From Chitinophaga pinensis (lineage in GTDB: Bacteria > Bacteroidota > Bacteroidia > M30B66), in contig CAMCXT010000001.1 in NCBI GenBank assembly GCA_945883545.1, forward strand, positions 78,864 through 142,863: a stretch of DNA of 64,000 bases. Reading direction: 5' to 3'. The notes below the pieces were generated by a model. It was not told where the DNA came from, did not search any database, and saw nothing but the letters and a program-made list of their open reading frames with translations. The position numbers and the translations under genes were made by a program. Numbering within the stretch: position 1 is the first letter of the stretch; every line of letters begins with the position of its first letter. Of this stretch, positions 170-18,304 are shown one piece after another.

Positions 170-1216
170 ATGAAGTTTCTGCAGAAATCGCTCCCATTGC
201 TTTCAAGGCTCACGTTGATTTTTACGTTTTTGGTAATTCTTGCAGGCAGTGTGGTGCGCGTTACACAGTCGGGAATGGGTTGTCCCGATTGGCCTAAGTG
301 TTTTGGTTATTATATTCCACCTACCGATCCTGACCAAGTGAATTTCCATCCCAATCAAGCCTACACAAAAGGAATGATGGTGATAGTGAACGACACACTT
401 TGGAGAGCTAAACAGGATTTTTCTTCAACGGCTGCATTCGACCGCACATCTTGGGAAAAATATCCGAAGCACGATTATGCCGATTTCATCGTGTATCAAA
501 CTTGGGTCGAATACATCAATCGTTTGTTGGGTGCTTTGTTGGGCTTGTTTGTTCTGGCTGTAATGGTTGCTTCGCTCTTCTATTGGAAAACCGATAAGCT
601 CATTCCATTTTACAGTTTTATTCTCCTTTTTTTAACCGGCTTTCAAGCATGGTTAGGCAAATTGGTGGTAGATGGAAACCTTATTCCGCAATCGATCAGT
701 ATTCACATGCTGGCTGCGTTGTTGTTGTTGCTTTTTGTTCAACTGCTCTCGCATCGTTTAAAGCCAAAACTTGAAGCCCCTTCACGCACAACTTCTTTGG
801 CTTGGATCGCATTGGGCGCGGTGTTTTTAACTGTTGTTCAGGTGTTAATTGGAACGCAAGTGCGCGAAGAGATTGATGTTGTGGCTGAACAGCTTGGGCA
901 TCAGAGCCGCGAATTGTGGATCGGAGGCTTATCGTCGATTCTCACTTTGCACAAAGCGTTTTCGATGGTACTTGTGACGATCAATGGGATTCTGATTTAC
1001 CAGCTTTTGCAACAAAAATCAGCCTACAGAAGCAAACAAGCGAAAGTTTTAGGTGCGTTTATCGCTACCGAAATCATATTAGGGATAGTGCTTAATTACT
1101 TCAATATTCCACAAGCAGGGCAGTCGCTGCATTTGCTGGTTTCGTGCTTGATTTTTTCAGTACAATTCGGGATTTTCATTTCACTTCGTCAAAAGCGAGG
1201 CGTTATTTCCAACTAA
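170..1216 (+). CDS. ctaA: Heme A synthase (COX15/CtaA family), polytopic membrane protein
   Basis: 348-aa ORF with multiple TM segments. The N-terminal 'GMGCPDWPKCFG' Cys pair motif is characteristic of CtaA/COX15. Confidence 0.75.
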   Translation: MKFLQKSLPLLSRLTLIFTFLVILAGSVVRVTQSGMGCPDWPKCFGYYIPPTDPDQVNFHPNQAYTKGMMVIVNDTLWRAKQDFSSTAAFDRTSWEKYPKHDYADFIVYQTWVEYINRLLGALLGLFVLAVMVASLFYWKTDKLIPFYSFILLFLTGFQAWLGKLVVDGNLIPQSISIHMLAALLLLLFVQLLSHRLKPKLEAPSRTTSLAWIALGAVFLTVVQVLIGTQVREEIDVVAEQLGHQSRELWIGGLSSILTLHKAFSMVLVTINGILIYQLLQQKSAYRSKQAKVLGAFIATEIILGIVLNYFNIPQAGQSLHLLVSCLIFSVQFGIFISLRQKRGVISN

Positions 1217-1772
1217 GCGAACCGATCAGGTGGTCGATGTCTTTTCTGAAAAAATTCACTACCGGGTTGAGCGAATCGGCATTCGGACTTGCATTGAAAT
1301 ACAGCGATCCGCGCAGAAAGTGCTTCGAACTGTCGGTTAAATGGAACTGGATTGCTGATGCAGCATTGCCGGTAACTTCATAAATGGTTCCATAAACGTT
1401 TGCTTCAGGTCTATTGACCAAGATTTCTGAAATATCGTTGGCTCGAACGGTGTGTTTGTAGGTAATTGTGCGAGAATCTTCCAAGAGTTTAGGAAGGTTG
1501 TTTTCAACGGGCAAATAACTGATGTAAATCGTTCCTTTAAATTTTGGAAAAACGATATTTGGCCAACAAGGTTGGTTGCGACGCGGGTTTAGTTCAAGAT
1601 TTCCATACACTGGATATTCGAATGTATAAGGGCAATCGCTTGTGTATGCTTGATATTTCTTTTCAGGGAAATCGATTCTGAAATATCCTCTCGGACGAGG
1701 AATGGCATTTTCTTCAGATCCGCAGGATGCGAATACGACCAACATCAATAAACCAAATATGAACCTCTGCAT
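1203..1772 (-). CDS. Hypothetical lipoprotein (signal peptide with lipobox 'FASC')
   Basis: ORF 1203..1823 trimmed to the internal Met 'MQRFIFGLLMLVVFASCGSEE', which gives a signal peptide followed by Cys. Its end overlaps ctaA convergently by 14 nt. Confidence 0.5.
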   Translation of the reverse strand: MQRFIFGLLMLVVFASCGSEENAIPRPRGYFRIDFPEKKYQAYTSDCPYTFEYPVYGNLELNPRRNQPCWPNIVFPKFKGTIYISYLPVENNLPKLLEDSRTITYKHTVRANDISEILVNRPEANVYGTIYEVTGNAASAIQFHLTDSSKHFLRGSLYFNASPNADSLNPVVNFFRKDIDHLIGSLSWK

Positions 1773-1797
1773 GCTCGCAAAGTAAGGAAATTGCAAT

Positions 1798-2181
1798 TTA
1801 GTAATCGACGTTGCCGAAGTCATCTTCTGATGAGTGGTGATGAAAGTCGTCTCTACGACCAGCCAAAAGTGTGAGCGTGTCGGCTACTACTTCAACAGAA
1901 TAGCGTTTCACTTTGTCTTTGTCTTCCCAGGTGCGCGATCGGAGTTTCCCTTCGATATAAACGGTTGCACCTTTTTTAACGATTTTCTCGGTTACTTCTG
2001 CAAGGCCTCTCCAAAGCACGATGTTGTGCCATTCAGTTTGCTCGAGGCGGTTACCGTCTTTCTTATAAATTTCGGTGGTTGCCAATGGGAAATTCGCTAC
2101 GCGCACCCCGTTTTCTAAAACTTTAACTTCCGGGTCTTTCCCAACATTACCGATCAGAATCACTTTATTAACTCCGGCCAT
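1798..2181 (-). CDS. ssb: Single-stranded DNA-binding protein
   Basis: 127-aa ORF with an OB-fold SSB N-terminus 'VNKVILIGNVGKDPEV...NG..VANF' and an acidic C-terminal tail ending 'DDF..VDY', typical of SSB. Confidence 0.85.
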   Translation of the reverse strand: MAGVNKVILIGNVGKDPEVKVLENGVRVANFPLATTEIYKKDGNRLEQTEWHNIVLWRGLAEVTEKIVKKGATVYIEGKLRSRTWEDKDKVKRYSVEVVADTLTLLAGRRDDFHHHSSEDDFGNVDY

Positions 2182-2282
2182 ACGCTAATCTTTTCTAAAT
2201 GAGTATGAACAAATATAAAGATTATCAATCGCAAATACAGGCAGTTAATAATTTCTTCAAGCGCTTTTCAGCAGCCGAAAAA

Positions 2283-2675
2283 TTATTCTGTGAGAAGGGC
2301 CAAGAGAAGGTCGGCGCTCAATGGTTTTTCTTGAAATCCGAGTACATCGGGAATAGATTCAGCTCTACTAATGTCGGCGGGATCGATCGAAGATGTGCAG
2401 ATTTGCAATTTCATTTTTGATCTCGTTTCTGGTGGTAGATTCATGTAACCTTGCAGAAAACTCCAGCCATCGTATAGTGGCATATTGAGATCAAGGATAA
2501 TGAGTACGGGCAAAGTTTGTTTGTTTTTTACCCTTTCGAGGAGTGAATTGAGCGAATCAAGGCCATCGTAGAAGAATTCGGTTGTGGTTTCAATACCTGT
2601 TTTCCGAAGATTATTCTTGGTGATCATGTAAAACAGGTTGTCATCATCGATGATCCAAACGAGCGGTAATTCCAT
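2283..2675 (-). CDS. Response regulator, receiver domain only (CheY-like)
   Basis: 130 aa with a 'LILDLNMP..DG' receiver signature and conserved Asp residues. It is co-oriented with the upstream histidine kinase and abuts it by 1 nt. Confidence 0.75.
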   Translation of the reverse strand: MELPLVWIIDDDNLFYMITKNNLRKTGIETTTEFFYDGLDSLNSLLERVKNKQTLPVLIILDLNMPLYDGWSFLQGYMNLPPETRSKMKLQICTSSIDPADISRAESIPDVLGFQEKPLSADLLLALLTE

Positions 2676-5536
2676 TATTTAGGTAGATAAACGGTAAAGG
2701 TTGATCCTACTCCAGGGGTGCTATTCACTTCAATTTTTCCCCCTTGAGCTTCGATTTGATTTCGGGTAATAAACAAGCCAATACCTCTGGCATCTCGATT
2801 TCCATGGAAGGTTTTAAACATACCAAAAATTCGGTCTCCATATTTATTTAGGTCTATTCCCAATCCATTGTCGCTGATTGAAAACCAGCTCTGCCTGTGT
2901 AGTTCCCCTGATTGAATTGTAATGATTGGATGCTGATCTGGTTTGCGGTATTTGATGGCATTTGAGATTAAATTCAGCACAATACTATCTAGATATGCGC
3001 GATCGGTATTCAAGGTATAATCTTTTGAAATGCGAAGATCGAAATGCACATTATTGGCTTTTACATCGAGCGCAATGGCTTGAATTGTTCGATCAACTAC
3101 TTCTTTTAACTGAACTGTCTCATTGTGAATATTTACCCTCGATTGAATATTCAATAGTTCGTTGAGGTGACGAAGCGTGGAGTCTAAATTCTTGCTTGAT
3201 GATACGAGTCCATCTACAAACTGATGTCTAACTTCTGGTTCAGGATCTTCGGCTAAAATTGAAGCTATACCACTGATATTGCTGGAATGTGACCGGATAT
3301 TGTGCGAAACGATGTAAGAGAAATTGAGTAGCCTTTTATTTTGTTCGCTTACAATATTTAAGGCTTCGGTTGTTGCTTTTTCTTGTTCCTTTCTTCCAGT
3401 GATATCGCTAAAGGTATAGGCAACGAGTGTTTCATTTTTAGTTGGTCCGGTAATGCAAACAGCATTGGTAAGCAAAACTGCTACGCTGCCATCTGGCATT
3501 GGATGCATCATTTCGAATGATTCTTTGGAACCAATTTTTATCATTTCGTCGTACCCAACTTCATTGTTTCCATTGAGAAAGGTTGGGAAAAGATTATTGA
3601 AACTAAGCTTCTGCAATTGCTGCAGCGAACAGTTCATCAGATTTGATGTGTACCTGTTTGCATAGATTATTTTATTTGCATGGTTCACGATAACTGCACC
3701 AAACGCAGCATTTTCAAAAACAATTCTAAATCTATCACGGTCGCTTTCCCACTGCAAGCGCGAAAACACATTGCAGATAATTTCTCCTGCAAGTTTGAGT
3801 AAAGCAGCCTCGTTTTCTGTCCATTGTTTATGTTTAACCACTGAGTCGAAGCCATAAAAACCTGCAATTTTTCGGTTAACAACCATCGGCAAAACGAAGA
3901 TCGATTTTATATCTTGCGATTGAAGCAAATCTTTTAAAAACTGCAACTCTGCTGGCAAACTATCTACATCTGAAATATGGATTTCTTTGTTGTCCAGAAT
4001 CTGGTCGGTCCACCATTGAAGATCGCTAAAATTTATCCCTTTTAAATTGTCGATTTGTGGTTCAATACCTTGAGCACACCAATCGAAGGTGTTGTCCATG
4101 GTTTTTTCCTCATTGTTGAACTCGAAAATATAGCTACGGTCAACCGCAAAGAACTGCCCGATTTCTTCCAGAAAGGCTTGCAAGAGCTGGTTGAGATGAA
4201 GGGAGTCTGCGAGGATAAATTTTGAGGTGAAATCAGAAAGCAATCTGTAATATCGAGTTTGATTGTCCCGCTCAAGTTCAGATTTTTTCGCTTGGGTAAT
4301 GTTTCGAATTACAGCCATAACACGGTCGTTGCCGAGGGAGGCATATCGAGCTTCGAAATACCGAATTTCATCGGCAACAGTTAAAGTGTATTGGTAAGGT
4401 TCAACGATGCCTCCTGATGCAGTTACTTTGATTAAGTGCATCACAGCATTGGCTTCATTTTCAGCTAAATAATCCCTGACGTTTGACCCAATTACTTGAT
4501 CTTCTGGCAAATAAAGTTCTTGTGGGTATGGTGAGTAAAACTCAAGTACCGAGCCGTCGGTTTTAAGAATATACAACTGATCGGGCAGGGTATTTACGAT
4601 TGCCTTAAATCGAGTTTGTTGATTGAGTATTTCATTGCTTCTTTTTACCGATTCAGAAACATCTCGCTGCAATGCAACAAAGTTGGTATGGTTTCCAGCT
4701 GAGTCGAATAGCGGGTAAATTTGGATATGCGCATCATACGCCTCTCCATTTTTTCGGTAATTGATTAATGTGGTCTCTCCTTTCTCTTTGTTTTCAATAG
4801 CACTTCGGAGAATCATTCTTCCACCGTCGTTGGTAGCAGGCCCTTGGAGTAAGCTTCCTGGTGTTTTGTTTTGGGCCTCTTCTAATTCGTAACCAGTAAT
4901 CTGAGTAAATGCATTGTTGACCCATTCGATTTTACCCGATTTATCGGTGATGATAACTGCATTGTCGGTATGGGTCGCTAAAAGTGAAAGGCGCTCAAAT
5001 TCATTATTTATTTCTTTGATTTCTAAAACTTGAAGAAGATTGAGTCGAGCTTTACCGAAAACTTTACAAACAAACTCAAAGAGTTTTTTTTGCAAATCAG
5101 TAAAGGCATCTGGCCTTCTGCTTACGACTCCGAAAACACCAATGCATTTTTCGTGTACATAAATCGGCTGATAAAGGCGGCTTCTAACGTTAAATGACCT
5201 TGGGCTATCGACCGTATTGTTGTTTGGGTCATTTTCGGTATCTGGTACATAAATCTGAAGGCCTGTTTTAAAAACCTTCCCAGGATGTCTGTCCATTGCT
5301 GTCTTTTCAGCAACCAATCGCTCCTCTTCAGAAAAACCGCGCGCAATTTTAAGATCTAAGCTTTGCGATTTAGAATTGTAAATGTATAGGCCAGAATAAT
5401 CGAATGGAATTAATTCCTCGAAAATCGAGTCAACTATGGTCAAAAGCTCTTTTTCAGATCCTGCAGAGAATAATTTTTTCTGAATCTCAATGCATTTGTC
5501 TAACAGCTCGATTTTATGTGCATCATTTTGATCCAT
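2675..5536 (-). CDS. Hybrid sensor histidine kinase with PAS/GAF sensory domains and HisKA/HATPase_c
   Basis: 953 aa with multiple PAS-like and GAF-like segments. The H-box 'VSHNIRSH' and the C-terminal ATPase motifs 'DNGLGID' and 'G.GLGL' are present. Confidence 0.8.
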   Translation of the reverse strand: MDQNDAHKIELLDKCIEIQKKLFSAGSEKELLTIVDSIFEELIPFDYSGLYIYNSKSQSLDLKIARGFSEEERLVAEKTAMDRHPGKVFKTGLQIYVPDTENDPNNNTVDSPRSFNVRSRLYQPIYVHEKCIGVFGVVSRRPDAFTDLQKKLFEFVCKVFGKARLNLLQVLEIKEINNEFERLSLLATHTDNAVIITDKSGKIEWVNNAFTQITGYELEEAQNKTPGSLLQGPATNDGGRMILRSAIENKEKGETTLINYRKNGEAYDAHIQIYPLFDSAGNHTNFVALQRDVSESVKRSNEILNQQTRFKAIVNTLPDQLYILKTDGSVLEFYSPYPQELYLPEDQVIGSNVRDYLAENEANAVMHLIKVTASGGIVEPYQYTLTVADEIRYFEARYASLGNDRVMAVIRNITQAKKSELERDNQTRYYRLLSDFTSKFILADSLHLNQLLQAFLEEIGQFFAVDRSYIFEFNNEEKTMDNTFDWCAQGIEPQIDNLKGINFSDLQWWTDQILDNKEIHISDVDSLPAELQFLKDLLQSQDIKSIFVLPMVVNRKIAGFYGFDSVVKHKQWTENEAALLKLAGEIICNVFSRLQWESDRDRFRIVFENAAFGAVIVNHANKIIYANRYTSNLMNCSLQQLQKLSFNNLFPTFLNGNNEVGYDEMIKIGSKESFEMMHPMPDGSVAVLLTNAVCITGPTKNETLVAYTFSDITGRKEQEKATTEALNIVSEQNKRLLNFSYIVSHNIRSHSSNISGIASILAEDPEPEVRHQFVDGLVSSSKNLDSTLRHLNELLNIQSRVNIHNETVQLKEVVDRTIQAIALDVKANNVHFDLRISKDYTLNTDRAYLDSIVLNLISNAIKYRKPDQHPIITIQSGELHRQSWFSISDNGLGIDLNKYGDRIFGMFKTFHGNRDARGIGLFITRNQIEAQGGKIEVNSTPGVGSTFTVYLPK

Positions 5537-5545
5537 GGTGAAAAA

Positions 5546-5968
5546 TTAAACAATAGCCTCAAGTGCTGCATTTGCGCATTGTTCATCCATTTTATAGTGC
5601 CCCCCGCTTACGCCAATTGCTCCTACCAACTGATCGTTAATATATATTGGCAACCCACCGCCTAGCAAGATAAAATTTGGCAAATCATGGACTCCATTTT
5701 CTAAAATTGGGTCTCCTTGGATAAATGACTGCCATGCTTCTCCGGTTGCCATTCCAAAGCCTACTGCGGTAATAGCTTTCTTTTTTGCAGTTTCGATTGA
5801 AATTAATGGTGCTCCATCCATTCGAAGAAATGTTTTGATCTGACCACTTTCATCAACTACACATACACTGATGGAAAATCCTAATTGTGTTGCCTTTTCT
5901 GTCGCCTTCTCAACTAGCTTCATTGCAGCTTGGCTAGAAACAGTTTCCTTTTTAAAAGTTTTATTCAT
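5546..5968 (-). CDS. DUF336/GlcG-like (heme-binding HbpS-like) protein
   Basis: 140 aa. The 'VCVVDESGQ...RMDGA' and 'GGGLPI..DQLVGAIGVSGG' motifs match the GlcG/DUF336 family. Confidence 0.6.
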   Translation of the reverse strand: MNKTFKKETVSSQAAMKLVEKATEKATQLGFSISVCVVDESGQIKTFLRMDGAPLISIETAKKKAITAVGFGMATGEAWQSFIQGDPILENGVHDLPNFILLGGGLPIYINDQLVGAIGVSGGHYKMDEQCANAALEAIV

Positions 5969-6163
5969 ACTCGGTGATTGTATTTGTCAGCGGTAATATA
6001 CTTACTTTATGTCACCAATGTTTCTTCAAATCAAAGAATAATCAATAAAATCTGCATAGCTTTAACAACTAGAAAAAAAGAAACATAAGGCGATTTTTGA
6101 GATATTTAATATAGCAATAGGTTTTTTGTTTTTAAGTTTTGTCTTCAATCATTAATAACAATA

Positions 6164-7822
6164 TTAGATGTTTAGAACGAAGCACCCGTTACAACTTTTG
6201 TCATCTACTTCAAATGAAGCTAGAACTGTCCAGTTTTGATCTTCTTTGCAGATTTCGTCACTTAAAAAGATGTTAATTTTATTCAACCCTGTTTTGAGAG
6301 AGGCTCCATATTCAAGTTGCACTTTTTTACCCATAACAGGTCTGGTCTTTGAAGTATAACCATGTTTATGCAAAGCTGCAACTAAGCACAAATTGCCAAT
6401 CACTCTAATGGCTGTGGGCATTGAAACGAAATCAACACTTGAAATAAAATCCACAGTCGCATTAAATTTATTTTCCCCGATTTGATTGAATTCAAGGATA
6501 GTATATCTGTCGTTTTCGATTTCGGTATGTAAATAGTCGCTTTTTAAGGCTTCAAATAATTCTCTTGAAATGGGTTGCTCAAATTCACGTTGAATCGTTT
6601 TTTTCCAGTAATGGTTTTGCATCATTAACCTTGAAAATGCTGATTCTGCTTCTGTTATTTTTATAGCACCTTCTTCCCAAAGTAACCAAGCCGGAGCGAT
6701 TCGACCGTTAAAACTATTTGACAAAGCAAATGTGTAGGCTCCAACATTGGTTATGAGAAGTCGATCATCTTTTTTTATATCCTTTAAGCAAGTGCTTTCA
6801 AGCAAGTTGTCTCCTGCAAAGCACAAAGGCCCTGCTAATGTGTCATTTCCATTAAATGGCAATGGGCTGCCTGAAGAGGATACTACCTTATGAGGCCAAT
6901 GTAAAAGGGTGATTTTCGCTAACTGGTCTGTTCCTACATCACAGATGCCCCAGGTTTTTCCTCTTGAATGCTTGATCGATTTTACTGTAGTTATTAGTCC
7001 AACAGCATCACCAACCAGCGCATGTCCAGGTTCGGTGTAGTATTCATAATTCTTTTGTTTTAACTGGTTTAATCTGCTAGTCCAGTCAAATATCGAAGGA
7101 AAATTATCTTGATCATTAAAGGGAATACCTAATCCTCCGCCTATGTCTAGATGTTTTATTGGGTGGCCAAGCTCTGTAGCGAGGTTGGCATTTTCATGCA
7201 AACTGTTTAGGGCGGAAACAAAGGAATCTAAATTGTCCATTTGAGTTCCCACATGCAAATGTAAGCCTGAAATTTTTAAGGTGATCTTGCTTAACAATTC
7301 AGGCAGGTCTTCTTCAGGAATTCCAAATTTTGAAGAAGATGAACCATGAGCCATTAGCTCCTGATTTTTCGAGGTTTTACTGTAGCTAACATTTTGTTTG
7401 GGATTGATTCTTATCCAAATTTGCCCTTTGCCTGAATCTTGACTGTTGTCTATTTCTTTTAGAAGATCAACATCGTCACAAACCCAAATTCCACCATTAT
7501 CAAGTACGATTTTAACAGTCTTGAAATCCTGTGAAGGAGAATTGTATGCAATGTTTTCCCATTTAAAACCTGATATTAAAGCTAGATTTATTTCAGATAA
7601 GCTTGAGCAGTCTGCACCGCATCCTTCTTCTGCTATACATTCTAATACCGCTGGAGCAGGATTGCACTTCACAGGATACAAAATCCTAAATGCAGAATTT
7701 GTGAAACTCAAGAATTGCCTAACATTTTCCTTGATTTGTTGCTTTCCGATAACCCATATCGGACTGCCAAATCGACTCGCCAACTCATTTATATCAAGTT
7801 CCTCATGCCATTGCCTTTTCAT
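6164..7822 (-). CDS. PLP-dependent Orn/DAP/Arg decarboxylase family protein (fold type III) with an extra ~150-aa C-terminal domain
   Basis: The N-terminal ~400 aa carries 'YPVKCNPAPAVLE..GCG.DC.S', 'DIGGGLGIPF' and 'EPGHALV', the hallmark motifs of DAP/ornithine decarboxylases. The C-terminal 150 aa are unrelated and possibly hotdog-like. Confidence 0.65.
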   Translation of the reverse strand: MKRQWHEELDINELASRFGSPIWVIGKQQIKENVRQFLSFTNSAFRILYPVKCNPAPAVLECIAEEGCGADCSSLSEINLALISGFKWENIAYNSPSQDFKTVKIVLDNGGIWVCDDVDLLKEIDNSQDSGKGQIWIRINPKQNVSYSKTSKNQELMAHGSSSSKFGIPEEDLPELLSKITLKISGLHLHVGTQMDNLDSFVSALNSLHENANLATELGHPIKHLDIGGGLGIPFNDQDNFPSIFDWTSRLNQLKQKNYEYYTEPGHALVGDAVGLITTVKSIKHSRGKTWGICDVGTDQLAKITLLHWPHKVVSSSGSPLPFNGNDTLAGPLCFAGDNLLESTCLKDIKKDDRLLITNVGAYTFALSNSFNGRIAPAWLLWEEGAIKITEAESAFSRLMMQNHYWKKTIQREFEQPISRELFEALKSDYLHTEIENDRYTILEFNQIGENKFNATVDFISSVDFVSMPTAIRVIGNLCLVAALHKHGYTSKTRPVMGKKVQLEYGASLKTGLNKINIFLSDEICKEDQNWTVLASFEVDDKSCNGCFVLNI

Positions 7823-7885
7823 GCCTGTTATTCATTTAGGCCAAAGAAAAACAAATAGAATAATGTAAAGACTAAGGATTAACTC

Positions 7886-8923
7886 TCATTGCGCTTCCAA
7901 ATATCTTGTTATTGCTCTCGGGAATGCCAACTTGTTAAGATCCGACAGATGAATTACTTCATAGTGTTCCCATTGTTTATTTGGCAGTTTTTCTCCTTCG
8001 AAATGGTAAAATCCAATGATCAATTCTCGGTGTGTGAGTAAGTGCCGAATATTGGTTTGAACCTTCTTAAGTGTCATACTTTCCGTTCCGGGGATGTTGA
8101 GAGCGTGAGGTTCCACTGGGCCATCAGTTTCGAGAAGTGGGAATTGATACAATCCCTTCCAGATGTCGTTTGTAGCTCTTCTTGAAACCAGCACACGATT
8201 ATCTAAATCTTTAAAAATGATGAAATGTAGGAAACGTGTTTTCACCTTTGTTTTTTCGCCCTTTACAGGAAAATCGTGCTGCTTCCCAGCTGAAAATGCT
8301 CCGCAATGTTGATTTAACACACATGTTTCACAACTCGGATTGCGTGGCTTGCATACGGTAGCGCCGAGTTCCATCATGGCTTGATTGAATGTTCCCGGAT
8401 CTTTCCGATCGAGCAGTAAGTTGCTGATTTCTTGGATTTTCTTTTTCCCCGGAGGGAGAAGAGGATTTTCTTGAACCTCGAAAAGTCGTGAAATAACGCG
8501 GTTTACGTTACCATCGACGGCCGCATGAGGCATACCGAAAGCAATGGAAGCTACTGCTGCCGCTGTGTAATCGCCAACGCCTTTCAAATTTCGGATGTCT
8601 TGATAGGTTTTCGGAAACTTCCCGTTGTGTTCTGCCACCACCGATTTTGCAGCCGCATGCAGGTTTCGAGCTCTTGAGTAATATCCCAATCCTTGCCAAC
8701 TTAGCATCACATCTTCTTCTGAAGCCATCGCTAAATCGGCAACCTCGGGATACTTTTCTGTGAACTTGTGGTAATAGGCTGTACCTTGATCGACCCTGGT
8801 TTGTTGCAGGATAACTTCCGACAGCCAAATGAAGTATGGATTTCGGGAATTTCTCCACGGCAGATTGCGTTTATTTTGGTTGTACCAGTCGATCAAAAGG
8901 ACCGAAATTGGGTGTTTTTCCAT
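7886..8923 (-). CDS. mutY: A/G-specific adenine DNA glycosylase MutY
   Basis: 345 aa with an HhH-GPD domain, a 4Fe-4S cluster loop 'C..C....HC.A' and a C-terminal NUDIX-like domain. Confidence 0.85.
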   Translation of the reverse strand: MEKHPISVLLIDWYNQNKRNLPWRNSRNPYFIWLSEVILQQTRVDQGTAYYHKFTEKYPEVADLAMASEEDVMLSWQGLGYYSRARNLHAAAKSVVAEHNGKFPKTYQDIRNLKGVGDYTAAAVASIAFGMPHAAVDGNVNRVISRLFEVQENPLLPPGKKKIQEISNLLLDRKDPGTFNQAMMELGATVCKPRNPSCETCVLNQHCGAFSAGKQHDFPVKGEKTKVKTRFLHFIIFKDLDNRVLVSRRATNDIWKGLYQFPLLETDGPVEPHALNIPGTESMTLKKVQTNIRHLLTHRELIIGFYHFEGEKLPNKQWEHYEVIHLSDLNKLAFPRAITRYLEAQ

Positions 8924-9063
8924 AGGCTAAGTCAACAACGACGGGCAAAATAATGTTTTCTAAAAAACTTTTTCTTAGAAAAGGAAAACGCATATCTTTG
9001 CAGCCCGTTTTTAGAAACGCTAACATCCACAGTTACAAATAAATCAAACATAATCAAACAGCC

Positions 9064-9351
9064 ATGACCAAAGCTGAAATCGTTGCAGAAATTGCTGAGA
9101 AGACCGGAATTGAAAAAGTAACCGTTCAGGCTACTGTTGAAGCATTCATGAAAAGTGTAAAAACGAACTTATCGCAAGGTAAAAATGTTTACCTACGTGG
9201 ATTCGGAAGCTTCATTGTAAAGAAACGTGCTGCTAAGAAAGGCCGTAACATCTCTAAAAACACTACAATCGTTATTCCTGAACATTTCATCCCATCTTTC
9301 AAACCAGCTAAAACGTTTGCTGAGAAAGTGAAGAAGTCTGTTAAGGCTTAA
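9064..9351 (+). CDS. hup: HU family DNA-binding protein
   Basis: 95 aa, with 'MTKAEIVAEIAEKTGI...GFGSF' typical of HU/IHF. Confidence 0.85.
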   Translation: MTKAEIVAEIAEKTGIEKVTVQATVEAFMKSVKTNLSQGKNVYLRGFGSFIVKKRAAKKGRNISKNTTIVIPEHFIPSFKPAKTFAEKVKKSVKA

Positions 9352-9366
9352 GTACTTCTAAATCTG

Positions 9367-10191
9367 ATGAATTCTCGTCAACTGATTGTTGTTTCTGCTT
9401 GTGTCTTGATTGGTGCTGCGGTGTATCTCTTACCGAGAAATGCAGAACACAATCATGAAGATCACGCGCAAGAATCAGTCGAAGGGAATGCATCGTTCGA
9501 GTCGCAACTCGTAGAAGTAAAAAAACAAACGCCAGCTGAAGTATTGGCGGGCATTGAGTTCTTTGAAGGGAAGTTAAAAACTGAAAGCGGAAAAGCTAAG
9601 GTGCAATTTCTAGATTCTTTGCGGTCTGTTTGGGACCGACAAATGCGTCCAGGAATTGCCGCTGAATATGTGCTTCAGAAAGCCGAAATACTTAACGATG
9701 CAGCATCATGGAAAGATGCAGGTATTCGTTTCTTAGGCATTTCAAGGTTTTTTGAAGGTGCCGACAAAGATGCACTTGCTAACCGTGCTGTTTCTTGTCT
9801 TGAAAAAGCACAGAAAATGGCTCCTGAAGATGTTGAAATCAAAACACAATTGGGCATCGCATATGTAGAAGGAAGTGCACAACCTATGCAAGGCATCACG
9901 CTTTTGCGGGAAGTTGTTGCTGCCGATTCAACAAACACCGATGCACAGCTTAGTCTTGGCTTTTTCTCTATGAAAAGCGGCCAGTACGACAAAGCTGTGA
10001 AACGTTTCAAAACAGTGATTAGACTTCGTCCGGATCTTCCAGAAATGTATCTCTATCTTGCAGATGCACTTTCGATGGAAGGCAACAAAGATGCAGCCCT
10101 AAAAGAGCTCGACAAATTGACCAAAATCTCCAAAGACACGATCCTCCTCAATGAGGCTAAATCGCGGAGAGCAAACATTTTACAGAACTAA
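9367..10191 (+). CDS. Tetratricopeptide-repeat protein with N-terminal membrane anchor
   Basis: 274 aa with an N-terminal hydrophobic segment and TPR-like helical repeats. Conserved neighbour of hup/rng in Bacteroidota. Confidence 0.6.
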   Translation: MNSRQLIVVSACVLIGAAVYLLPRNAEHNHEDHAQESVEGNASFESQLVEVKKQTPAEVLAGIEFFEGKLKTESGKAKVQFLDSLRSVWDRQMRPGIAAEYVLQKAEILNDAASWKDAGIRFLGISRFFEGADKDALANRAVSCLEKAQKMAPEDVEIKTQLGIAYVEGSAQPMQGITLLREVVAADSTNTDAQLSLGFFSMKSGQYDKAVKRFKTVIRLRPDLPEMYLYLADALSMEGNKDAALKELDKLTKISKDTILLNEAKSRRANILQN

Positions 10192-12011: not shown

Positions 12012-12064
12012 AAACCGGTGAAACGTAAGGCAGTCAAGTGCTGCGATTCACCGGTTTTTATTAC
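12012..12064 (+). terminator. Rho-independent terminator downstream of rng
   Basis: An 11-bp stem 'aaaccggtgaa/ttcaccggttt' is followed by a T-rich run, 27 nt after the rng stop. Confidence 0.55.
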
Positions 12065-12103
12065 TCTATCAACACTTTCAATCCGCGGAATTCTTCAGAT
12101 ATT

Positions 12104-14509
12104 ATGATTTGGACTGCTCTTTCGAGGTGGATTCTGCGTTTTAGGTTACCCATTTTGTTGGTTATTGCTGCCATTACGGTGGTGATGGGTTATTATGCTT
12201 CGAAAGCAGAGATGACCTACACAATGGCTCAGATTCTTCCTACGGATGATCCGGAGTATATTGCTTATCAGGACTTTAACAAGCGTTTTGGGCAGGATGC
12301 CAACATCATGGTGATTGGTTTCGAAACCGATAGCCTTTTTGAGCTGCCTGTTTTTCGCGATTGGATGAATACAGGGCAAGAGCTTCGAAAGATTGAAGCG
12401 GTGAAGAACGTTCTTTCAGTTGCGGGCATTTACAACCTCACCCGAAACGATTCAACGCAAAAGTTCGATGTAGCTCCGTTGATCAGCCAAATTCCCGAAT
12501 CTCAGGCTGAGCTGGACAGTCTGAAAAACATCATTTTATCGCTTCCATTTTATCGTGAATTGCTCATAGCTCCTTCCGGTAATGGTCGATATGCGACCTT
12601 GATGCTCGTTACACTTGATCAAGAGAGCATCGACCGGAAAGACCGAAAAGAACTGATTGAACATATCGCTGAAATCGGCGACTCGTTTGGCAAAAAACAC
12701 GATTTGGTGATCCATTATTCGGGTTTACCACATATCCGAACGCTCAACTCTTTGAAACTTCGAGATGAATTGGTGATGTTCCTCTGGATGTCGCTTCTCA
12801 TTACCGCCATTGTGCTTTACATCTTCTTTAAGTCGGTGAAGGCCATTGTATTCCCGATGCTGGTTGTAGCGCTCAGTGTTGTTTGGTGCGTGGGAACCTT
12901 GTCGATGTTAGGATATAAAATCACCATCCTAACAGCTTTGATTCCTCCGCTGATCGTGATTATCGGGATACCTAATTGTATTTTCCTCACCAACAATTTC
13001 CACCGCGAGTACAAAGGCCATGGCAACAAAATCAAGGCGATTTCTCGGGTGTTACAACGAATTGGAAATGCGACATTCCTCACCAACTTCAACACTGCAC
13101 TGGGCTTTGTAACCTTCGCGTTTACCGACAGTGAATTGCTTCAAAGTTTTGGTGTTCTCTCTTCAATCAATGTGATGCAAGTGTTCTTCCTAAGCATCAC
13201 TGTATTGCCGATTTTCTATTCCTATATCCAGCCTCCAAAGCCTAAGCAAACCAAGCATCTCGACAACAAACGGATGCAAGTGGTGGTGGATTGGCTCATC
13301 AACATGGTCACACACCGCCGCAAACTAATTTACATCCTTACGGCTGTGATTGTTGGTGTGAGTATTTGGGGGATGACGAAAATCAGAACCACTGGGAATT
13401 TCACCGACGATATTCCAGATTCGGACAAGATGATTGTGGATCTTAAGTTTTTCGAGACGCATTTTCATGGTGTGATGCCTTTCGAAATTACGATCGACAC
13501 CAGGAAAAAGAACGGAGTGATGAAGCTTTCGACCTTGAAAAAAATCGAGCAGCTTCAGCAGGAACTTCGCAAATATCCCGAGTTTGCTCGTCCGCTTTCG
13601 ATCGTGGAAGTGATCAAGTTTTCGAAGCAGGCTTTTTATGGAGGCGATTCAACAGAGTACAAATTGCCAAACAGTGAAGAGATTGCGTTTTTGCTTCCAT
13701 ATGCGCAGAATACCAATCTGAAATCTTCCACTACAGCTTCCTTCCTCGATAGTAACAAGCAGGTAACCCGCATCAGTGTTCAGATGGCTGATATCGGTAC
13801 AACCGAGATGGAAAAGATTTCTAACGAGATTCGTCCCAAGGTGGATTCCTTATTCCCTGCCGATAAATTCGATGTGAATTTCACAGGAACGAGCATTATC
13901 TTTCTAAAGGGAACCGATTACTTGATCGAAAACCTGCTGTTGAGCTTATTGGCAGCAATTATTTTGATTTCGGGACTGATGTATTTCATGTTCTATTCGT
14001 TCAAGATGCTTTTGATTTCTGCAATTCCGAACGTGATCCCTTTGCTGTTTACTGCAGGTTTAATGGGATTCTATGGAATTTCATTGAAGTCATCCACTAT
14101 CTTGGTTTTCAATATTGCTTACGGAATCACAGTTGATAGTGCGATTCACTTCTTTTCGCGCTATGGTCTAGACCTGAAAGCTCATGGGAATAAAATCCGC
14201 CCAGCCGTTTTCGATGCTATGAAGGATACATCTATCAGCATCATCTATACCTCAATTATTTTGTTGCTGGGCTTCTGTATTTTCATCTTCTCCAGTTTTG
14301 GAGGAACGATTGCTTTGGGATTCCTGATTTCTGTTACTATTTTCGTCGGACTGTTTACCAATCTATTGTTGCTTCCAACATTGCTACTTTCTATGGATAG
14401 AGCGTTCACCATAAAGGCTTACAAAGAGCCACTGATCATGGTATTTGATGAGGAAGAAGACATTGAATTGGATCATCTGACTATCCGCAAGGATGAAAAC
14501 GAAAACTAA
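12104..14509 (+). CDS. MMPL/RND-superfamily exporter (COG1033-like, two 6-TM bundles)
   Basis: About 800 aa with two blocks of ~6 TM helices separated by large loops, typical of MMPL/HpnN-like exporters. Start placed at ATG 12104; the track ORF starts at 12038. Confidence 0.65.
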
Positions 14510-15377
14510 CGTGAAAGGAATCATTCTCGCCGGAGGATCCGGTACTCGATTGCATCCGCTAACTCTCGCAGTGAGCAAACAGCTGATGCCAGTATATGAT
14601 AAACCAATGATTTACTATCCGCTGTCGACGCTCATGTTGGCGGGGATTCGTGAAATACTTATTATTTCTACACCGCACGATTTACCGCACTTCAAGAAAT
14701 TGTTGGGCGATGGAAAATCGTTGGGGATGGATATCAGTTATGCTGAACAAGCTGTTCCAAACGGACTTGCACAAGCATTTGTGATTGGTGCTGATTTCAT
14801 CGGAAACGATAAATGTGCGCTCGTTCTGGGCGATAACATATTCTATGGTGCGGGCATGTCGCGCTTGTTGCAAAGCATCAACGATCCTGATGGCGGTGTG
14901 GTATTCGCTTATCATGTTTCAGATCCGGAACGCTATGGTGTTGTGGAGTTTAACGATCAACAGCAAGCCATTTCTATCGAAGAAAAACCTGCACAGCCGA
15001 AGTCGAATTTCGCAGTTCCTGGTTTGTATTTCTACGACAACTCGGTGGTTGAAATTGCCCGAAACTTGGAGCCTTCTGCCCGAGGAGAATACGAAATTAC
15101 CGATGTGAATAAGCATTATTTGAAAGCCGGTAAACTTAAGGTGGGCGTACTCGATCGCGGCACAGCTTGGCTTGATACAGGCACCTTCGATTCGTTGATG
15201 CAAGCTGGTCAGTTTGTTCAAGTAATTGAGCAACGTCAAGGCTTGAAAATTGGCTGTATCGAAGAAGTAGCTTGGAGAATGAAATTCATCAACGACGCCC
15301 AATTGGATGCGCTCGCTCAACCATTACGCAAAAGCGGATATGGCGATTACTTGATAAACCTCTTGAAAGGAAGATGA
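14493..15377 (+). CDS. rmlA: Glucose-1-phosphate thymidylyltransferase
   Basis: '[51 protein letters not shown]' is near-identical to the RmlA signature. The gene overlaps the upstream stop by 17 nt. Confidence 0.9.
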
Positions 15378-16309
15378 CACGTATACTCATTACCGGTGGA
15401 GCCGGATTTGTTGGAAGCTGTTTGGCTGATAAACTAGCGGAAAACCCAGAAAACATGATTGTGGTGGTGGATAATCTCCGCACTGGAGAAATTGTTAAAG
15501 TGCCAAACTCACGTCATAACAATGTTCATTTTATTAAATGCGATACCAACGATTACGCTGATATTTCGGCCGTTTTCTTCGCATGGAAATTCGACTTTGT
15601 TTTTCATTACGCCGCACTCGTTGGCGTTTTGAGAACCTTGCAAAATCCGGTCGCAGTACTCGACGATATTGCTGGAATAGAAAATGTGCTGAAGCTTTCT
15701 AAAAACACGGGTGTGAAACGCGTGTACTTCTCATCTTCATCGGAAGTTTACGGAGAGCCAGTAGAATTTCCTCAGAATGAGCACACTACGCCACTCAATT
15801 CGAGATTGCCTTATGCCATCGTGAAAAATGTTGGTGAAGCTTATCTGCGTTCATATCAAAAGGAATTTGGATTGGAATACACTATTTTCAGGTTCTTCAA
15901 CACTTTCGGACCAAAGCAAAGCCGCGATTTCGTGATTTCGAAATTCTTCCGCATGGCAACACAAAATGAGCCTATCACCATTTATGGAGATGGGTCTCAA
16001 ACGCGCACTTTCTGTTACATCGACGACAATGTGGAGGCTTGCACACAAGCATTTTACCGCAACGAATATGTGAATGATGTAGTGAACGTTGGTGGAACCA
16101 TCGAAATTCCAATCCTTCAGGTTGCAGAAACAATCATTCGTGTGGTTGGTTCCAAATCGGAAATCCGATTCCTCGATCCATTGGAAGAAGGCGATATGAC
16201 ACGTAGAAAACCAGACACCACCAAAATGATGAAACTGATGAATCGTCCTTTGGTGACATTTGAAGAAGGATTACAACGAATCGTTCAAAATACCAGCTAT
16301 ATTCTTTGA
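15374..16309 (+). CDS. NAD-dependent epimerase/dehydratase, UDP-glucuronate decarboxylase (UXS)-like
   Basis: '[12 protein letters not shown]' Rossmann motif, 'SSSEVYG', 'YxxxK' and 'FNTFGP' resemble UXS/ArnA-type decarboxylases. Start set to ATG 15374. Confidence 0.7.
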
Positions 16310-17283
16310 GCCAAGAAATAAAAGCGTTACAAGAGAAAATTGCCAATTCTGTTGCTGCACTTGAATTTCCTCAGCAGCCGGCAGATCTTTACGATCCTAT
16401 TCGATACACACTCGAACTAGGTGGCAAACGCATGCGTCCTGCACTTGTGCTGATGGGATGTTCGCTTTTCAGCCGTGACCTCGAAGCTGCAGTGAAACCC
16501 GCATTGGGCGTTGAAATGTTTCACAATTTCACCTTGCTGCACGACGACATCATGGACAATGCTCCCTTGCGGAGAAACAAGCCTACCGTGTTTTCGAAAT
16601 GGAATACCAATGTTGCCATCCTTTCGGGAGATGTAATGTTTGCTGAGTCGTTTCGATTGATTTCAGATGCTCCAGCCCCTGTATTGAAACCTGTTATCGA
16701 TGTGTTTCTGAAAGCTGCCATCGAAGTGTGCGAAGGACAACAATGGGATATGGATTTCGAATCGCGCAGCAATGTGAGCATTCCGGAGTATCTCAATATG
16801 ATTCGTTTCAAAACAGCCGTATTGTTAGGAGCTTCGTTGCAGATTGGCGCTTTGTGCGGAGGTGCTAACCCGAAAGACGCTCAATTGCTTTATGATTTTG
16901 GTTGCGCCTTGGGCGTGGCATTTCAAATTCAAGATGATGTTTTGGATGTTTATGGCGACCCTGATAAATTTGGTAAGCAGGTAGGTGGCGATATTATATC
17001 GAACAAGAAAACTTGGTTGAAACTTCGTGCTCTCGAAAAAGCGAACGAAGCACAACTTGCTGAATTAACCAACTATTACAGCGGCGAAGCTTTCGATCCA
17101 ATTGAAAAGGTAAATGCCGTTCGGGCAATTTTCGACGCGAATGATGTGAAAACTGAAGCAGAAACACTCATGCAGCAATATTTGCATGAAGCACTCGACT
17201 CGTTAGAAAATGTAAATGCATCAGCATCAGTGAAAGCGCTCTTAGAAGGATTCGCTCGTGAACTGATGCAACGTCAATTCTAA
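16306..17283 (+). CDS. Polyprenyl diphosphate synthase (trans-isoprenyl diphosphate synthase family)
   Basis: FARM 'LLHDDIMDN' and SARM 'FQIQDDVLD' aspartate-rich motifs are present. The ORF begins at TTG and overlaps the upstream stop. Confidence 0.8.
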   Translation: MSQEIKALQEKIANSVAALEFPQQPADLYDPIRYTLELGGKRMRPALVLMGCSLFSRDLEAAVKPALGVEMFHNFTLLHDDIMDNAPLRRNKPTVFSKWNTNVAILSGDVMFAESFRLISDAPAPVLKPVIDVFLKAAIEVCEGQQWDMDFESRSNVSIPEYLNMIRFKTAVLLGASLQIGALCGGANPKDAQLLYDFGCALGVAFQIQDDVLDVYGDPDKFGKQVGGDIISNKKTWLKLRALEKANEAQLAELTNYYSGEAFDPIEKVNAVRAIFDANDVKTEAETLMQQYLHEALDSLENVNASASVKALLEGFARELMQRQF

Positions 17284-17287
17284 AGCA

Positions 17288-18304
17288 TCAGGCCCAAACT
17301 TTGGTGCCTTCAGTACAATTTTTACAAATGTCGATTTCTTGTCGGTTGCTTAAAACTGAACGGCGGAAACGATCGTACTCGGCGCTTTTCCAAACAGCTT
17401 TAAAATCATCAATTCCAGCATTTCCCAAAGTATGAAGTGCGTCTTTGTCGAAACAGCAAGGAACCACTTTACCGTCCCAAGTAATCACGCAACCTTGCCA
17501 CATCCTCCAGCAATGGTTTTCCATTTTATTTTTCAGCCTCCACTTGCCATCTAAACCTTTTCTGTAACGCGAATATTTTTCGTTATCAGGAATCAATGGA
17601 TGACCATTTTCGAAATCGTACACTTGGGCTGTTTTGAAACGCACTTCATCCACCCCTAATTCTTTGGCCAATTGAAGTACTTCATCGGTTTGGTGTTCGT
17701 TAGGCTTAACCACCAGAAACTGAAAGATCACATGTGGTGTTCGACTTTTCAGACGTTTACGTGCTGCAAGGATTTCCTTAGTGCCTTGGATGACCTTGTC
17801 TAGTTTTCCACCTTTGCGGTACTGCTGATAGGTTTCTTGCGAGGTTCCATCGATCGAAATGATGAGGCGATGAAGCCCTGAGCGCACCGTTTTTTCGGCA
17901 TTTTCGGTGTTGAGGTAATGTGCATTGGTCGATGTAGCTGTATATATCCCGCGTTGAGCGGCGAAACCAATCATTTCATGAAGATCGGTATTGAGAAACG
18001 GCTCGCCTTGGAAGTAAAAGTTGATCGAAGCCAAACCTGGCCGAAGTTCGGTAACCAGCGATTTGAAAAAAGTGGGTTCCATCATACCGGTTGGCCGGCT
18101 AAAAGCGCGCAATCCGCTGGGGCATTCTGGGCATCGAAGATTACAAGAAGTCGTGGGCTCAACAGAAATATTGAGCGGCATTCCACGATGCATAACCTTT
18201 CCTCGCCATCTCGAAAGATAGAAAGAAGCAGATAGTCGCATCAGGTTTAACGCCAAAGGCCACCTGAAAAGACGCAACATTTTTAGCCTGTCGTGCAGCA
18301 ACAT
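17288..18304 (-). CDS. Radical SAM protein with C-terminal SPASM/twitch-like Cys-rich domain
   Basis: 'SCNLRCPECPSG' is a CxxxCxxC-type cluster. Additional C-terminal cysteines are 'CWRMWQGCVITWDGKVVPCCFD' and 'CKNC'. Confidence 0.7.
   Translation of the reverse strand: MLLHDRLKMLRLFRWPLALNLMRLSASFYLSRWRGKVMHRGMPLNISVEPTTSCNLRCPECPSGLRAFSRPTGMMEPTFFKSLVTELRPGLASINFYFQGEPFLNTDLHEMIGFAAQRGIYTATSTNAHYLNTENAEKTVRSGLHRLIISIDGTSQETYQQYRKGGKLDKVIQGTKEILAARKRLKSRTPHVIFQFLVVKPNEHQTDEVLQLAKELGVDEVRFKTAQVYDFENGHPLIPDNEKYSRYRKGLDGKWRLKNKMENHCWRMWQGCVITWDGKVVPCCFDKDALHTLGNAGIDDFKAVWKSAEYDRFRRSVLSNRQEIDICKNCTEGTKVWA

Follow-up and report, generated by a model that had tools for sequence, protein, structure and literature searches.

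The window analysed here, a 64-kb stretch of DNA, encodes a protein in which a pyridoxal phosphate (PLP)-dependent decarboxylase of the diaminopimelate decarboxylase (DAPDC) clade is followed by a hotdog-fold domain; the fusion is one polypeptide with two folded modules, and its architecture is genuine and conserved (Table 1). Very probably, judging from its substrate pocket and profile scores, it is not LysA. We propose, with a probability of about 0.45, that the fusion decarboxylates a hydrophobic or an acyl- or thioester-linked amino acid, the acyl part of which would be bound or hydrolysed by the hotdog domain, and that this activity may be wired to signalling.

Table 1. Features of the fusion gene and its surroundings (positions are those of the window)
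Feature	Positions	Strand	Evidence or remark
Whole gene, decarboxylase-hotdog fusion, 552 aa	6164..7822	-	Single ORF; stop codon 6164-6166 included
Fold-type III (alanine-racemase-fold) PLP decarboxylase core, barrel and beta domain, residues 1-395	6638..7822	-	PF02784 and PF00278
Specificity positions	6818..7024	-	H267 7022-7024; K303 6914-6916; L307 6902-6904; F335 6818-6820
Linker, residues 396-414	6581..6637	-	Reduced pLDDT, no regular secondary structure
Hotdog-fold domain, residues ~415-552	6167..6580	-	AF2 model, pLDDT 87.9
DUF336/HbpS-like protein, 140 aa, first gene of the three-gene sensor module	5546..5968	-	PF03928, E 5.6e-35
Soluble histidine kinase GAF-PAS-GAF-PAS, 953 aa	2675..5536	-	Pfam GAF, PAS, HATPase_c
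Single-domain response regulator, 130-aa receiver without output domain	2283..2675	-	PF00072
mutY, flanking backbone gene outside the system	7886..8923	-	HhH-GPD and NUDIX_4 (Pfam)

Extent of the fusion gene

The first-pass annotation had described positions 5546-7822 as a PLP decarboxylase with an unrelated extra C-terminal domain. That span holds two genes, the DUF336 gene and the fusion gene; the description of the protein stands, since the motifs named for its core are present as K52 in YPVKCNP, GGGLG at residues 228-232 and EPG at residues 264-266, and since DAPDC structures align only with residues 7-397, the remainder being the hotdog fold. E. coli SpeC has a different fold and is a poor comparator for the length of the protein. 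No solved structure covers both domains, the longest aligned stretch being 381 of the 552 residues, and limited full-text literature searching for decarboxylase-hotdog fusions and for DAPDC paralogues in Bacteroidetes retrieved no description of the fusion.

More than 800 homologues retain the full-length fusion, those of 552-628 aa matching 99% of its length, and because they span the query in this way, neither a missed stop codon nor a shift of frame can explain the C-terminal extension. The chance that two separate genes have been joined in this ORF by misassembly or a frameshift is negligible: in one MAG (L021) the gene is indeed broken, into one ORF of 468 aa and another of 96 aa, but the intact protein recurs in hundreds of independent assemblies, and the AF2 model of the entire chain is confident (pLDDT 86.6, pTM 0.88), which together with the full-length homologues rules such errors out. 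Codons of the C-terminal part that differ from those of a 97%-identical relative do so synonymously in 10 cases and non-synonymously in 8; the numbers are small, but synonymous change exceeds what would be expected of unconstrained sequence. Positions 2000-9500 contain no Rfam elements. No convincing terminator emerged, nor did a sigma-70 promoter in a promoter scan that does not cover those of Bacteroidota.

Decarboxylase core and substrate pocket

The N-terminal module is a PLP decarboxylase that belongs to the DAPDC clade and has kept its catalytic machinery intact. It matches Orn_Arg_deC_N (PF02784) over residues 29-270 (E 1.8e-39; 136.1 bits against a gathering cutoff of 23.4) and Orn_DAP_Arg_deC (PF00278) as far as residue 361 (32.9 bits against a gathering cutoff of 23), and its PLP-binding and catalytic set is complete, comprising the Schiff-base Lys, the stacking His, the Gly-rich phosphate loop, the Glu that contacts the pyridine N, and the active-site Cys and Tyr. 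K52, H190, G228-230, E264, C334, D338 and Y363 are each conserved in 146 or 147 of the 147 family members.

The pocket that confers specificity differs from that of LysA. Alignments with DAPDC structures place H267, K303, L307 and F335 of the fusion at the DAP-binding Arg, Arg, Tyr and Glu of DAPDC, the corresponding motifs being EPGH rather than EPGR, QLAKI..L rather than DLIRP..Y and CFAGD rather than CE(S/T)GD. F335 is found in all 147 sequences, K303 in 143, H267 in 135 and L307 in 133. Experiments on the T. maritima enzyme (TmDAPDC) have shown that the distal carboxylate of DAP is held by R249 and R285 and the distal amine by E315; substitution E315F lowers the activity on DAP from 675 to 36 mU/mg, leaving ~5%, and activity on D-Phe and D-norleucine requires a hydrophobic residue at position 315 (PMC8277567).

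The fusion is annotated throughout as 'diaminopimelate decarboxylase', and DAPDCs, such as those of Aquifex (2p3e) and T. maritima (2yxx), are indeed its closest matches in both sequence and structure. That it is still the cell's LysA, equipped with an accessory C-terminal domain, is nevertheless improbable. The residual DAP activity of E315F would allow for it, as would the 64-kb window, which holds no second homologue. Against it, the equivalents of R249, R285 and E315 (H267, K303 and F335) and of the Tyr (L307) are all changed, with the replacements fixed family-wide; the protein scores 226.4 bits against the lysA equivalog TIGR01048, under the cutoff of 297.9, and has ~155 extra C-terminal residues; and the family is restricted to scattered uncultured lineages, a spread unlike the distribution of an essential gene. 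The genomes that match are all MAGs, mostly of freshwater Bacteroidota with a few Planctomycetota; the fusion is known only from uncultured aquatic bacteria, with no cultured host among the matches, and its hotdog-domain family accounts for only 63 clusters among 1.84 billion representatives. The scores and the near-invariant replacements bear out the initial view of the protein as something other than a plain lysine-biosynthesis enzyme; the substrate classes then put forward (a modified amino acid, a lipid precursor or a polyamine precursor) found no confirmation.

A substrate that is hydrophobic or acyl- or thioester-linked is probable because the pocket for the distal end of DAP has turned largely non-polar. 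With F335 and L307 lining it, and only His and Lys kept as polar residues, meso-diaminopimelate would no longer be used; the likely substrate would be an amino acid that has a hydrophobic side chain or is linked to a larger acyl or thioester group. The DAPDC clade includes BtrK, MccE, SbnH and FigC, the substrates of which are amino acids carried on larger scaffolds (PMC7857480). BtrK ranks third among the structural matches of the fusion and, as a related enzyme that decarboxylates L-glutamyl attached to the carrier protein BtrI, may serve as a precedent. The likeness has its limits: BtrK and the other scaffold-linked enzymes are less similar to the fusion in sequence than LysA is, and none of BtrK, MccE, SbnH, FigC/FslC and AcsE bears a fused hotdog domain. 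Nor does the fusion have a carrier protein, a ligase or a siderophore or antibiotic cluster nearby. BtrK-like enzymes are expected to be encoded together with a carrier protein of their own and an ATP-grasp or ligase enzyme; clustering of neighbours in 39 dereplicated groups brought out no such family and no conserved metabolic partner of any other kind, and in 83 loci a crude regular-expression scan for phosphopantetheine-site motifs picked up none of the small ORFs lying within 4 kb.

The hotdog domain

The AF2 model of the C-terminal domain has a five- or six-stranded antiparallel sheet around a long central helix, and the hotdog fold is confidently assigned. The domain is preceded by the linker, in which W406 is conserved in 126 of 147 sequences. 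The motif F465-x-S467-M-P469-x-A-x-R473 opens the central helix, and further conserved residues are K492, S428 and D438; S428, P469 and K492 occur in all 147 sequences, and S467 and R473 each in 146.

By sequence, the domain appears to constitute a family that nobody has described, none of the known hotdog families, 4HBT, FabZ/FabA, MaoC, FcoT and Acyl-ACP TE among them, having been matched. Residues ~396-552 gave no Pfam match, either in the fusion or in 31 homologues, and nothing relevant appeared in the latter even at E<=10; the C-terminal region likewise gave no match in a search of NCBIfam or in a profile search of PDB sequences. Among the hotdog proteins compared (SAV606/CmiS1, Rv0098 (FcoT), 4HBT class II/PaaI, THEM4/5, FabZ and FapR), identity to the fusion domain is 3-15%, and, unlike the fusion, none of the hotdog thioesterases and their relatives is joined to a PLP enzyme. 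Searches for homologues from a stand-alone relative (P0167) and from a protein in which the same hotdog family is joined to a UbiA prenyltransferase (P0166) each recovered the query alone. The latter fusion recalls the way in which a thioesterase is known to be paired with a prenyltransferase.

The most likely role of the domain would be to bind, and it may also hydrolyse, the acyl- or CoA-linked portion of the substrate or product, so that both modules would perform consecutive steps on one molecule. Conservation peaks where the central helix begins, the place at which hotdog folds canonically hold their ligand, although the conserved residues could also form a contact face for the decarboxylase instead. 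Hydrolysis is another matter. The catalytic His that precedes the central helix in FabZ/FabA-type enzymes, where it is accompanied by an Asp or Glu, is absent from the fusion domain, its place being taken by F465 (Phe in 141/147 sequences; His in weak stand-alone relatives). Thioesterases of the class II 4HBT/PaaI type carry a catalytic acid some 8 residues into the central helix; in the fusion domain, position 477, a putative helix acid for which the structural register is not fixed, is Asp in 135/147 sequences and Asn in the clade to which the window belongs. Hydrolytic activity is doubtful in that clade because the sole helix acid, D477, is Asn there.

A different division of labour, in which a free amino acid, perhaps a hydrophobic one of the L or D series, is decarboxylated to a simple amine and the hotdog domain is non-catalytic, acting as an allosteric sensor, an oligomerization module or a dock for a phosphorylated receiver, is possible and the less likely of the two. 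FapR, a hotdog protein that binds malonyl-CoA, is a precedent for allosteric sensing and is among the structural matches of the domain, which has no recognized catalytic residue set and has lost D477 in the clade of the window. A decarboxylase for free amino acids would also suit a gene that mostly stands alone, and DAPDC engineered to have a hydrophobic side chain at position 315 does take D-Phe and D-norleucine (PMC8277567). A non-catalytic role is harder to reconcile with the placement of the strongest conservation at the canonical ligand and active site and with the UbiA fusion, which points to substrate handling; for a regulatory role in particular, ~80% of lineages have no regulator nearby. 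Where regulators do adjoin the fusion they are all receiver-only and therefore must act through protein contacts, which would be in keeping with docking.

Signalling genes beside the fusion

The DUF336, kinase and receiver genes are co-directional and tightly spaced: the kinase gene begins 9 nt past the DUF336 gene and shares 1 nt with the receiver gene. This agrees with the gene order noted at first, except that the kinase, which has no receiver domain, is no hybrid; a gene of its own encodes the receiver. Reading of the sequences by eye, with no prediction tool, revealed no signal peptide in the DUF336 protein and no obvious membrane segment in the kinase. DUF336 proteins include small-molecule sensors such as HbpS and the formaldehyde sensor EfgA (PMC4991794, PMC8153426). 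The HbpS-SenS-SenR system of Streptomyces, which responds to redox state and haem, likewise has a DUF336 gene adjoining those of a sensor kinase and a response regulator; there HbpS is secreted, the kinase is in the membrane and the regulator binds DNA, whereas here all the components are, as read from sequence, cytoplasmic, with a soluble GAF/PAS kinase and a receiver-only regulator. The 'winged' decarboxylases LdcI, AdiA and SpeC, of the AAT fold, also combine a PLP decarboxylase with a receiver-type domain (PMC8503589). They differ in that the PLP fold is another one and the receiver-like domain, a part of the same chain, cannot be phosphorylated, whereas the receiver considered here is encoded, in some lineages only, by a separate and apparently functional gene.

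No universal operon surrounds the fusion in the 39 dereplicated groups, synteny being limited to close relatives. The adjacency of mutY and the fusion is retained in three related lineages, and one close relative has the order mutY-fusion-ssb-gldD with the sensor module missing; adjacency to a fatty-acid desaturase gene occurs in one Pirellula lineage only. Nevertheless, in L082 an orthologous DUF336-GAF/PAS kinase-receiver module, with a 53%-identical DUF336 protein, adjoins a distant, 43%-identical fusion in the opposite gene order, and the module is also present in L013 and L091. In three further lineages, modules with an H-NOX, a FIST or a PAS kinase lie directly upstream of the fusion, each with a single-domain receiver; the receivers beside the fusion in other lineages are all single-domain proteins of 131-147 aa.

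A regulatory link between the fusion and signalling is plausible, not proven, because the orthologous module recurs and because three lineages have another kinase and receiver upstream. The original argument from gene neighbourhood thus holds in part: the module does recur by the 43%-identical fusion, but in ~80% of the 39 groups neither a kinase nor a DUF336 gene is a neighbour. It may well be, at a likelihood approaching that of our main proposal, that these neighbours are coincidental and that the fusion has no functional tie to signalling, for they are missing in most lineages (a kinase is adjacent in only about 6-8 of the 39 groups), and the module, where the clade of the window has it at all, may lie to one side of ssb or to the other. 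When receiver enrichment was compared by Fisher test with more distant positions of the same loci, a background contaminated by receivers of the same modules, the result was non-significant (p = 0.2). Coincidence would less readily account for an orthologous three-gene module beside so divergent a fusion in a different gene order, for the co-directional single-domain receiver at position -1 in four groups, or for sensors that vary (H-NOX, FIST, PAS, DUF336) while the type of receiver is constant.

For the proposed acyl- or thioester-directed decarboxylase, adjacency to a sensor kinase and a receiver-only regulator suggests that its activity or expression may be an output of signal sensing. A stronger version, which we consider a long shot, would dedicate the fusion to the output of two-component sensors of the haem, NO or redox type in Bacteroidota: the phosphorylated receiver would bind the enzyme directly and switch on the synthesis of a small amine or amino-ketone, for which an amino acid and a hotdog-bound acyl-CoA would be the starting materials. 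CqsA, a PLP enzyme that is encoded next to a sensor kinase and makes CAI-1, provides an analogy. To our knowledge, Bacteroidota largely lack c-di-GMP signalling, and the outputs of their H-NOX- and DUF336-type sensors are poorly known.

Significance

Decarboxylases of the DAPDC fold have been recruited repeatedly to new chemistry, in polyamine, siderophore, antibiotic and microcin pathways. The fusion represents an unstudied branch of the DAPDCs, distinguished by its hotdog domain and by a specificity pocket in which the change has become fixed, that is widespread in uncultured freshwater Bacteroidota. Reconstructions of the lysine pathway in fusion-bearing MAGs may count a gene that does not make lysine. 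If both domains share one thioester-linked substrate, the pairing of a PLP decarboxylase with a hotdog domain would be undescribed enzymology, and should the connection with receiver-only two-component systems prove real, the fusion would offer a testable output for sensors of the H-NOX and DUF336 types.

The decarboxylase-hotdog fusion protein

The 552-aa protein is a genuine, conserved fusion. It has 839 matches among 5.8 billion proteins searched; the best 120 are 552-600 aa in length and share 41-97% identity with the query, of which they cover 91-100% (mostly 99%). Conservation extends to the C-terminus in a 36-sequence alignment, and scans keyed on the C-terminal motif found the full-length protein at almost every metagenome locus and at 33 of the 34 in genomes. 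Codon changes relative to a 97%-identical relative number 10 synonymous and 8 non-synonymous in the C-terminal part, and 21 and 7, respectively, in the decarboxylase core. The probability that the long ORF is an artefact is negligible. All 34 genome matches are MAGs, mostly of freshwater or sediment Bacteroidota with a few Planctomycetota; no cultured isolate is among them. Several species labels look implausible for environmental bins (Chryseobacterium gleum for L029, L030 and L043; Spirosoma fluviale for L039) or, at L040, actinobacterial (Candidatus Planktophila lacus) despite a Bacteroidota-type gene on the contig, which suggests mislabelling or mis-binning. In one MAG of the Chitinophagaceae the fusion is divided between two ORFs, of 468 and 96 aa (L021, 6604-8393), as the result of a frameshift, pseudogene formation or faulty assembly; another locus of this MAG (L041, 8079-8336) carries just an 85-aa hotdog fragment.

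Residues 29-361 correspond to both Pfam domains of fold-type III PLP decarboxylases, and solved structures of diaminopimelate decarboxylase (DAPDC, LysA) align with residues 7-397 and not beyond. The PLP-binding and catalytic residues are all invariant in the family, and those that recognize diaminopimelate (DAP) have been lost: in a residue-level alignment to the structures, EPGR of DAPDC is replaced by EPGH, DLIRP...Y by QLAKI...L, and CE(S/T)GD by CFAGD, and these replacements are fixed in the family (H in 135, K in 143, L in 133 and F in 147 of 147 members). The DAPDC of T. maritima holds the distal carboxylate of DAP with two Arg residues and the distal amine with Glu; its E315F variant is approximately 19-fold less active on DAP, and activity on D-Phe and D-norleucine requires a hydrophobic residue at this position (PMC8277567). 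The DAPDC clade also includes BtrK, MccE, SbnH, FigC and AcsE, the substrates of which are amino acids attached to larger groups (PMC7857480). Judged from its residues, the core looks active but not like LysA; that the fusion is a genuine LysA to which an accessory domain has been added is improbable, and the public annotation 'diaminopimelate decarboxylase' (otherwise 'hypothetical') is very probably wrong. The distal end of the substrate may be non-polar or acyl/thioester-linked, the proposed reaction being decarboxylation of an amino acid that is hydrophobic or joined to an acyl/thioester group.

The last ~155 residues have no match in Pfam or NCBIfam; the C-terminal domain has no Pfam match in any of 31 members and no sequence match in the PDB, and is an orphan at the sequence level. 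An AlphaFold2 model of this region, built from a 31-sequence alignment, is confident (pLDDT 87.9, pTM 0.84) and consists of two strands, a long helix and four further strands; Foldseek supports a hotdog fold, with matches that include Arthrobacter 4-hydroxybenzoyl-CoA thioesterase, SAV606 and FapR, and we assign this predicted fold with confidence. In a profile search, only 63 clusters among 1.84 billion representative proteins matched the domain, and nearly all are parts of this fusion, either its C-terminus or a fragment; there are two kinds of exception. By profile-profile comparison a few stand-alone relatives, all weak, are homologous to the domain (98% probability) and have His at the position of F465. 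The other exception, P0166 (L049, 179-1540), has the same orphan hotdog family fused N-terminal to a UbiA-family prenyltransferase; it is a singleton for which no homologues were retrieved, encoded on a 1.9-kb JGI contig with untranslated ends that has the appearance of a eukaryotic transcript.

Across 147 members of the fusion family, S428, P469 and K492 never vary, S467 and R473 are each present in 146, and position 438 is Asp or Glu in 146. These residues form a patch where the central helix begins, and it is there that hotdog enzymes usually have their ligand or active site. The domain may bind, and perhaps hydrolyse, the acyl or CoA part of the substrate. Position 477 on the helix is Asp in 135 of the 147 members and Asn in the window's clade; hydrolysis by the window's protein is therefore uncertain, and a non-catalytic domain with a regulatory or scaffolding role is a less likely alternative. 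No solved structure spans both domains, and limited full-text searching for this fusion turned up no account of it. Since each of the two folds is well known, the protein is not a new category.

Gene neighbourhood and a possible signalling link

The first-pass annotation, a PLP decarboxylase with an extra domain beside a DUF336 gene and a hybrid kinase with response regulator, was correct overall; the kinase is not hybrid, and the span assigned to the decarboxylase takes in two genes. The three-gene module of DUF336 protein, kinase and regulator (2283-5968, minus strand) is tightly packed: the first two genes are 9 nt apart and the last two overlap by 1 nt. GC content drops to 35-38% across 5-8 kb, from 42-44% in the flanks. 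A cluster at 12038-18304 encodes an MMPL/sterol-sensing-domain transporter, a nucleotidyl-transferase, an epimerase, a polyprenyl synthase and a radical-SAM/SPASM protein (Pfam assignments borrowed from the 97%-identical locus L001).

Features of the window in minus-strand order, and desaturase genes adjoining the fusion in a Pirellula lineage
Feature	Location	Strand	Remarks
mutY	7886-8923	-	first in order
Decarboxylase-hotdog fusion, 552 aa	6164-7822	-	after mutY
DUF336/HbpS-like gene, 140 aa	5546-5968	-	after fusion
GAF-PAS-GAF-PAS histidine kinase, apparently soluble, 953 aa	2675-5536	-	after DUF336 gene
Receiver-only response regulator, 130 aa	2283-2675	-	after kinase
ssb, then gldD		-	next after receiver gene
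Desaturase, Pirellula	L042 5659-6693		adjacent to fusion
Desaturase, Pirellula	L044 2635-3636		adjacent to fusion
Desaturase, Pirellula	L084, L087		adjacent to fusion

Sensing is a known role of DUF336 proteins: HbpS works with the SenS/SenR kinase pair (PMC4991794), and EfgA senses formaldehyde (PMC8153426). Compared with HbpS-SenS-SenR of Streptomyces, the window's module looks like a fully cytoplasmic analogue.

When 83 loci were dereplicated at 80% identity of the fusion to 39 groups, no gene family was found to accompany it throughout; synteny is confined to close relatives, and the usual neighbours are unrelated genes of housekeeping or niche function. A crude regex scan of the 83 loci found no carrier-protein-like ORF within 4 kb. 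In one Pirellula lineage, and in no other, a co-directional gene for a DesA-type fatty-acid desaturase lies upstream and stops 24-34 bp short of the fusion.

The order mutY-ssb-gldD is a conserved backbone (window 1203-8923; L006, L013, L091), and in the window's clade the fusion always follows mutY. In the window the module lies directly after the fusion and before ssb; L013 and L091 have it after ssb, and L006 lacks it. Because of this, fusion gene and module look like separate insertions into the backbone. That the kinase/receiver and DUF336 neighbours are coincidental is a real possibility, somewhat short of even odds: the variable position, taken alone, counts against a link, a receiver occupies position -1 in 4 of 37 groups, and a Fisher test of receivers near the fusion versus farther positions gives p = 0.2, against a background contaminated by receivers of the same modules. 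Two observations speak for a link. A distant fusion (L081/L082), which is 43% identical and belongs to another branch of the tree, is preceded by an orthologous module (DUF336 protein 53%, GAF/PAS kinase 37-50% and receiver 46% identical), in the order module then fusion; and in three other groups a different sensor kinase (H-NOX-kinase, FIST-associated kinase or PAS-kinase) and then a single-domain receiver lie directly upstream and co-directional. Orthologous modules also occur at L013/L050 and L091. Receivers directly beside the fusion or in an adjoining kinase module in other lineages are all receiver-only (131-147 aa); in two further groups, by contrast, the second gene upstream encodes a 243-aa regulator (L033) or a 1203-aa hybrid kinase (L039). 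Upstream of one fusion (L008, 4634-7869) is a dense signalling cluster: a PAS kinase and a receiver come first, followed by genes for a haem-oxygenase-like (PF11251) protein, a FIST-domain protein, a kinase and a second receiver.

With such weak statistics, the signalling link is a good lead rather than a result, and the apparent connection with sensors of haem, NO or redox type is intriguing but unproven. In some lineages, a two-component system whose regulator is receiver-only may have the fusion as its output or partner. The architecture itself is widespread in uncultured aquatic Bacteroidota.
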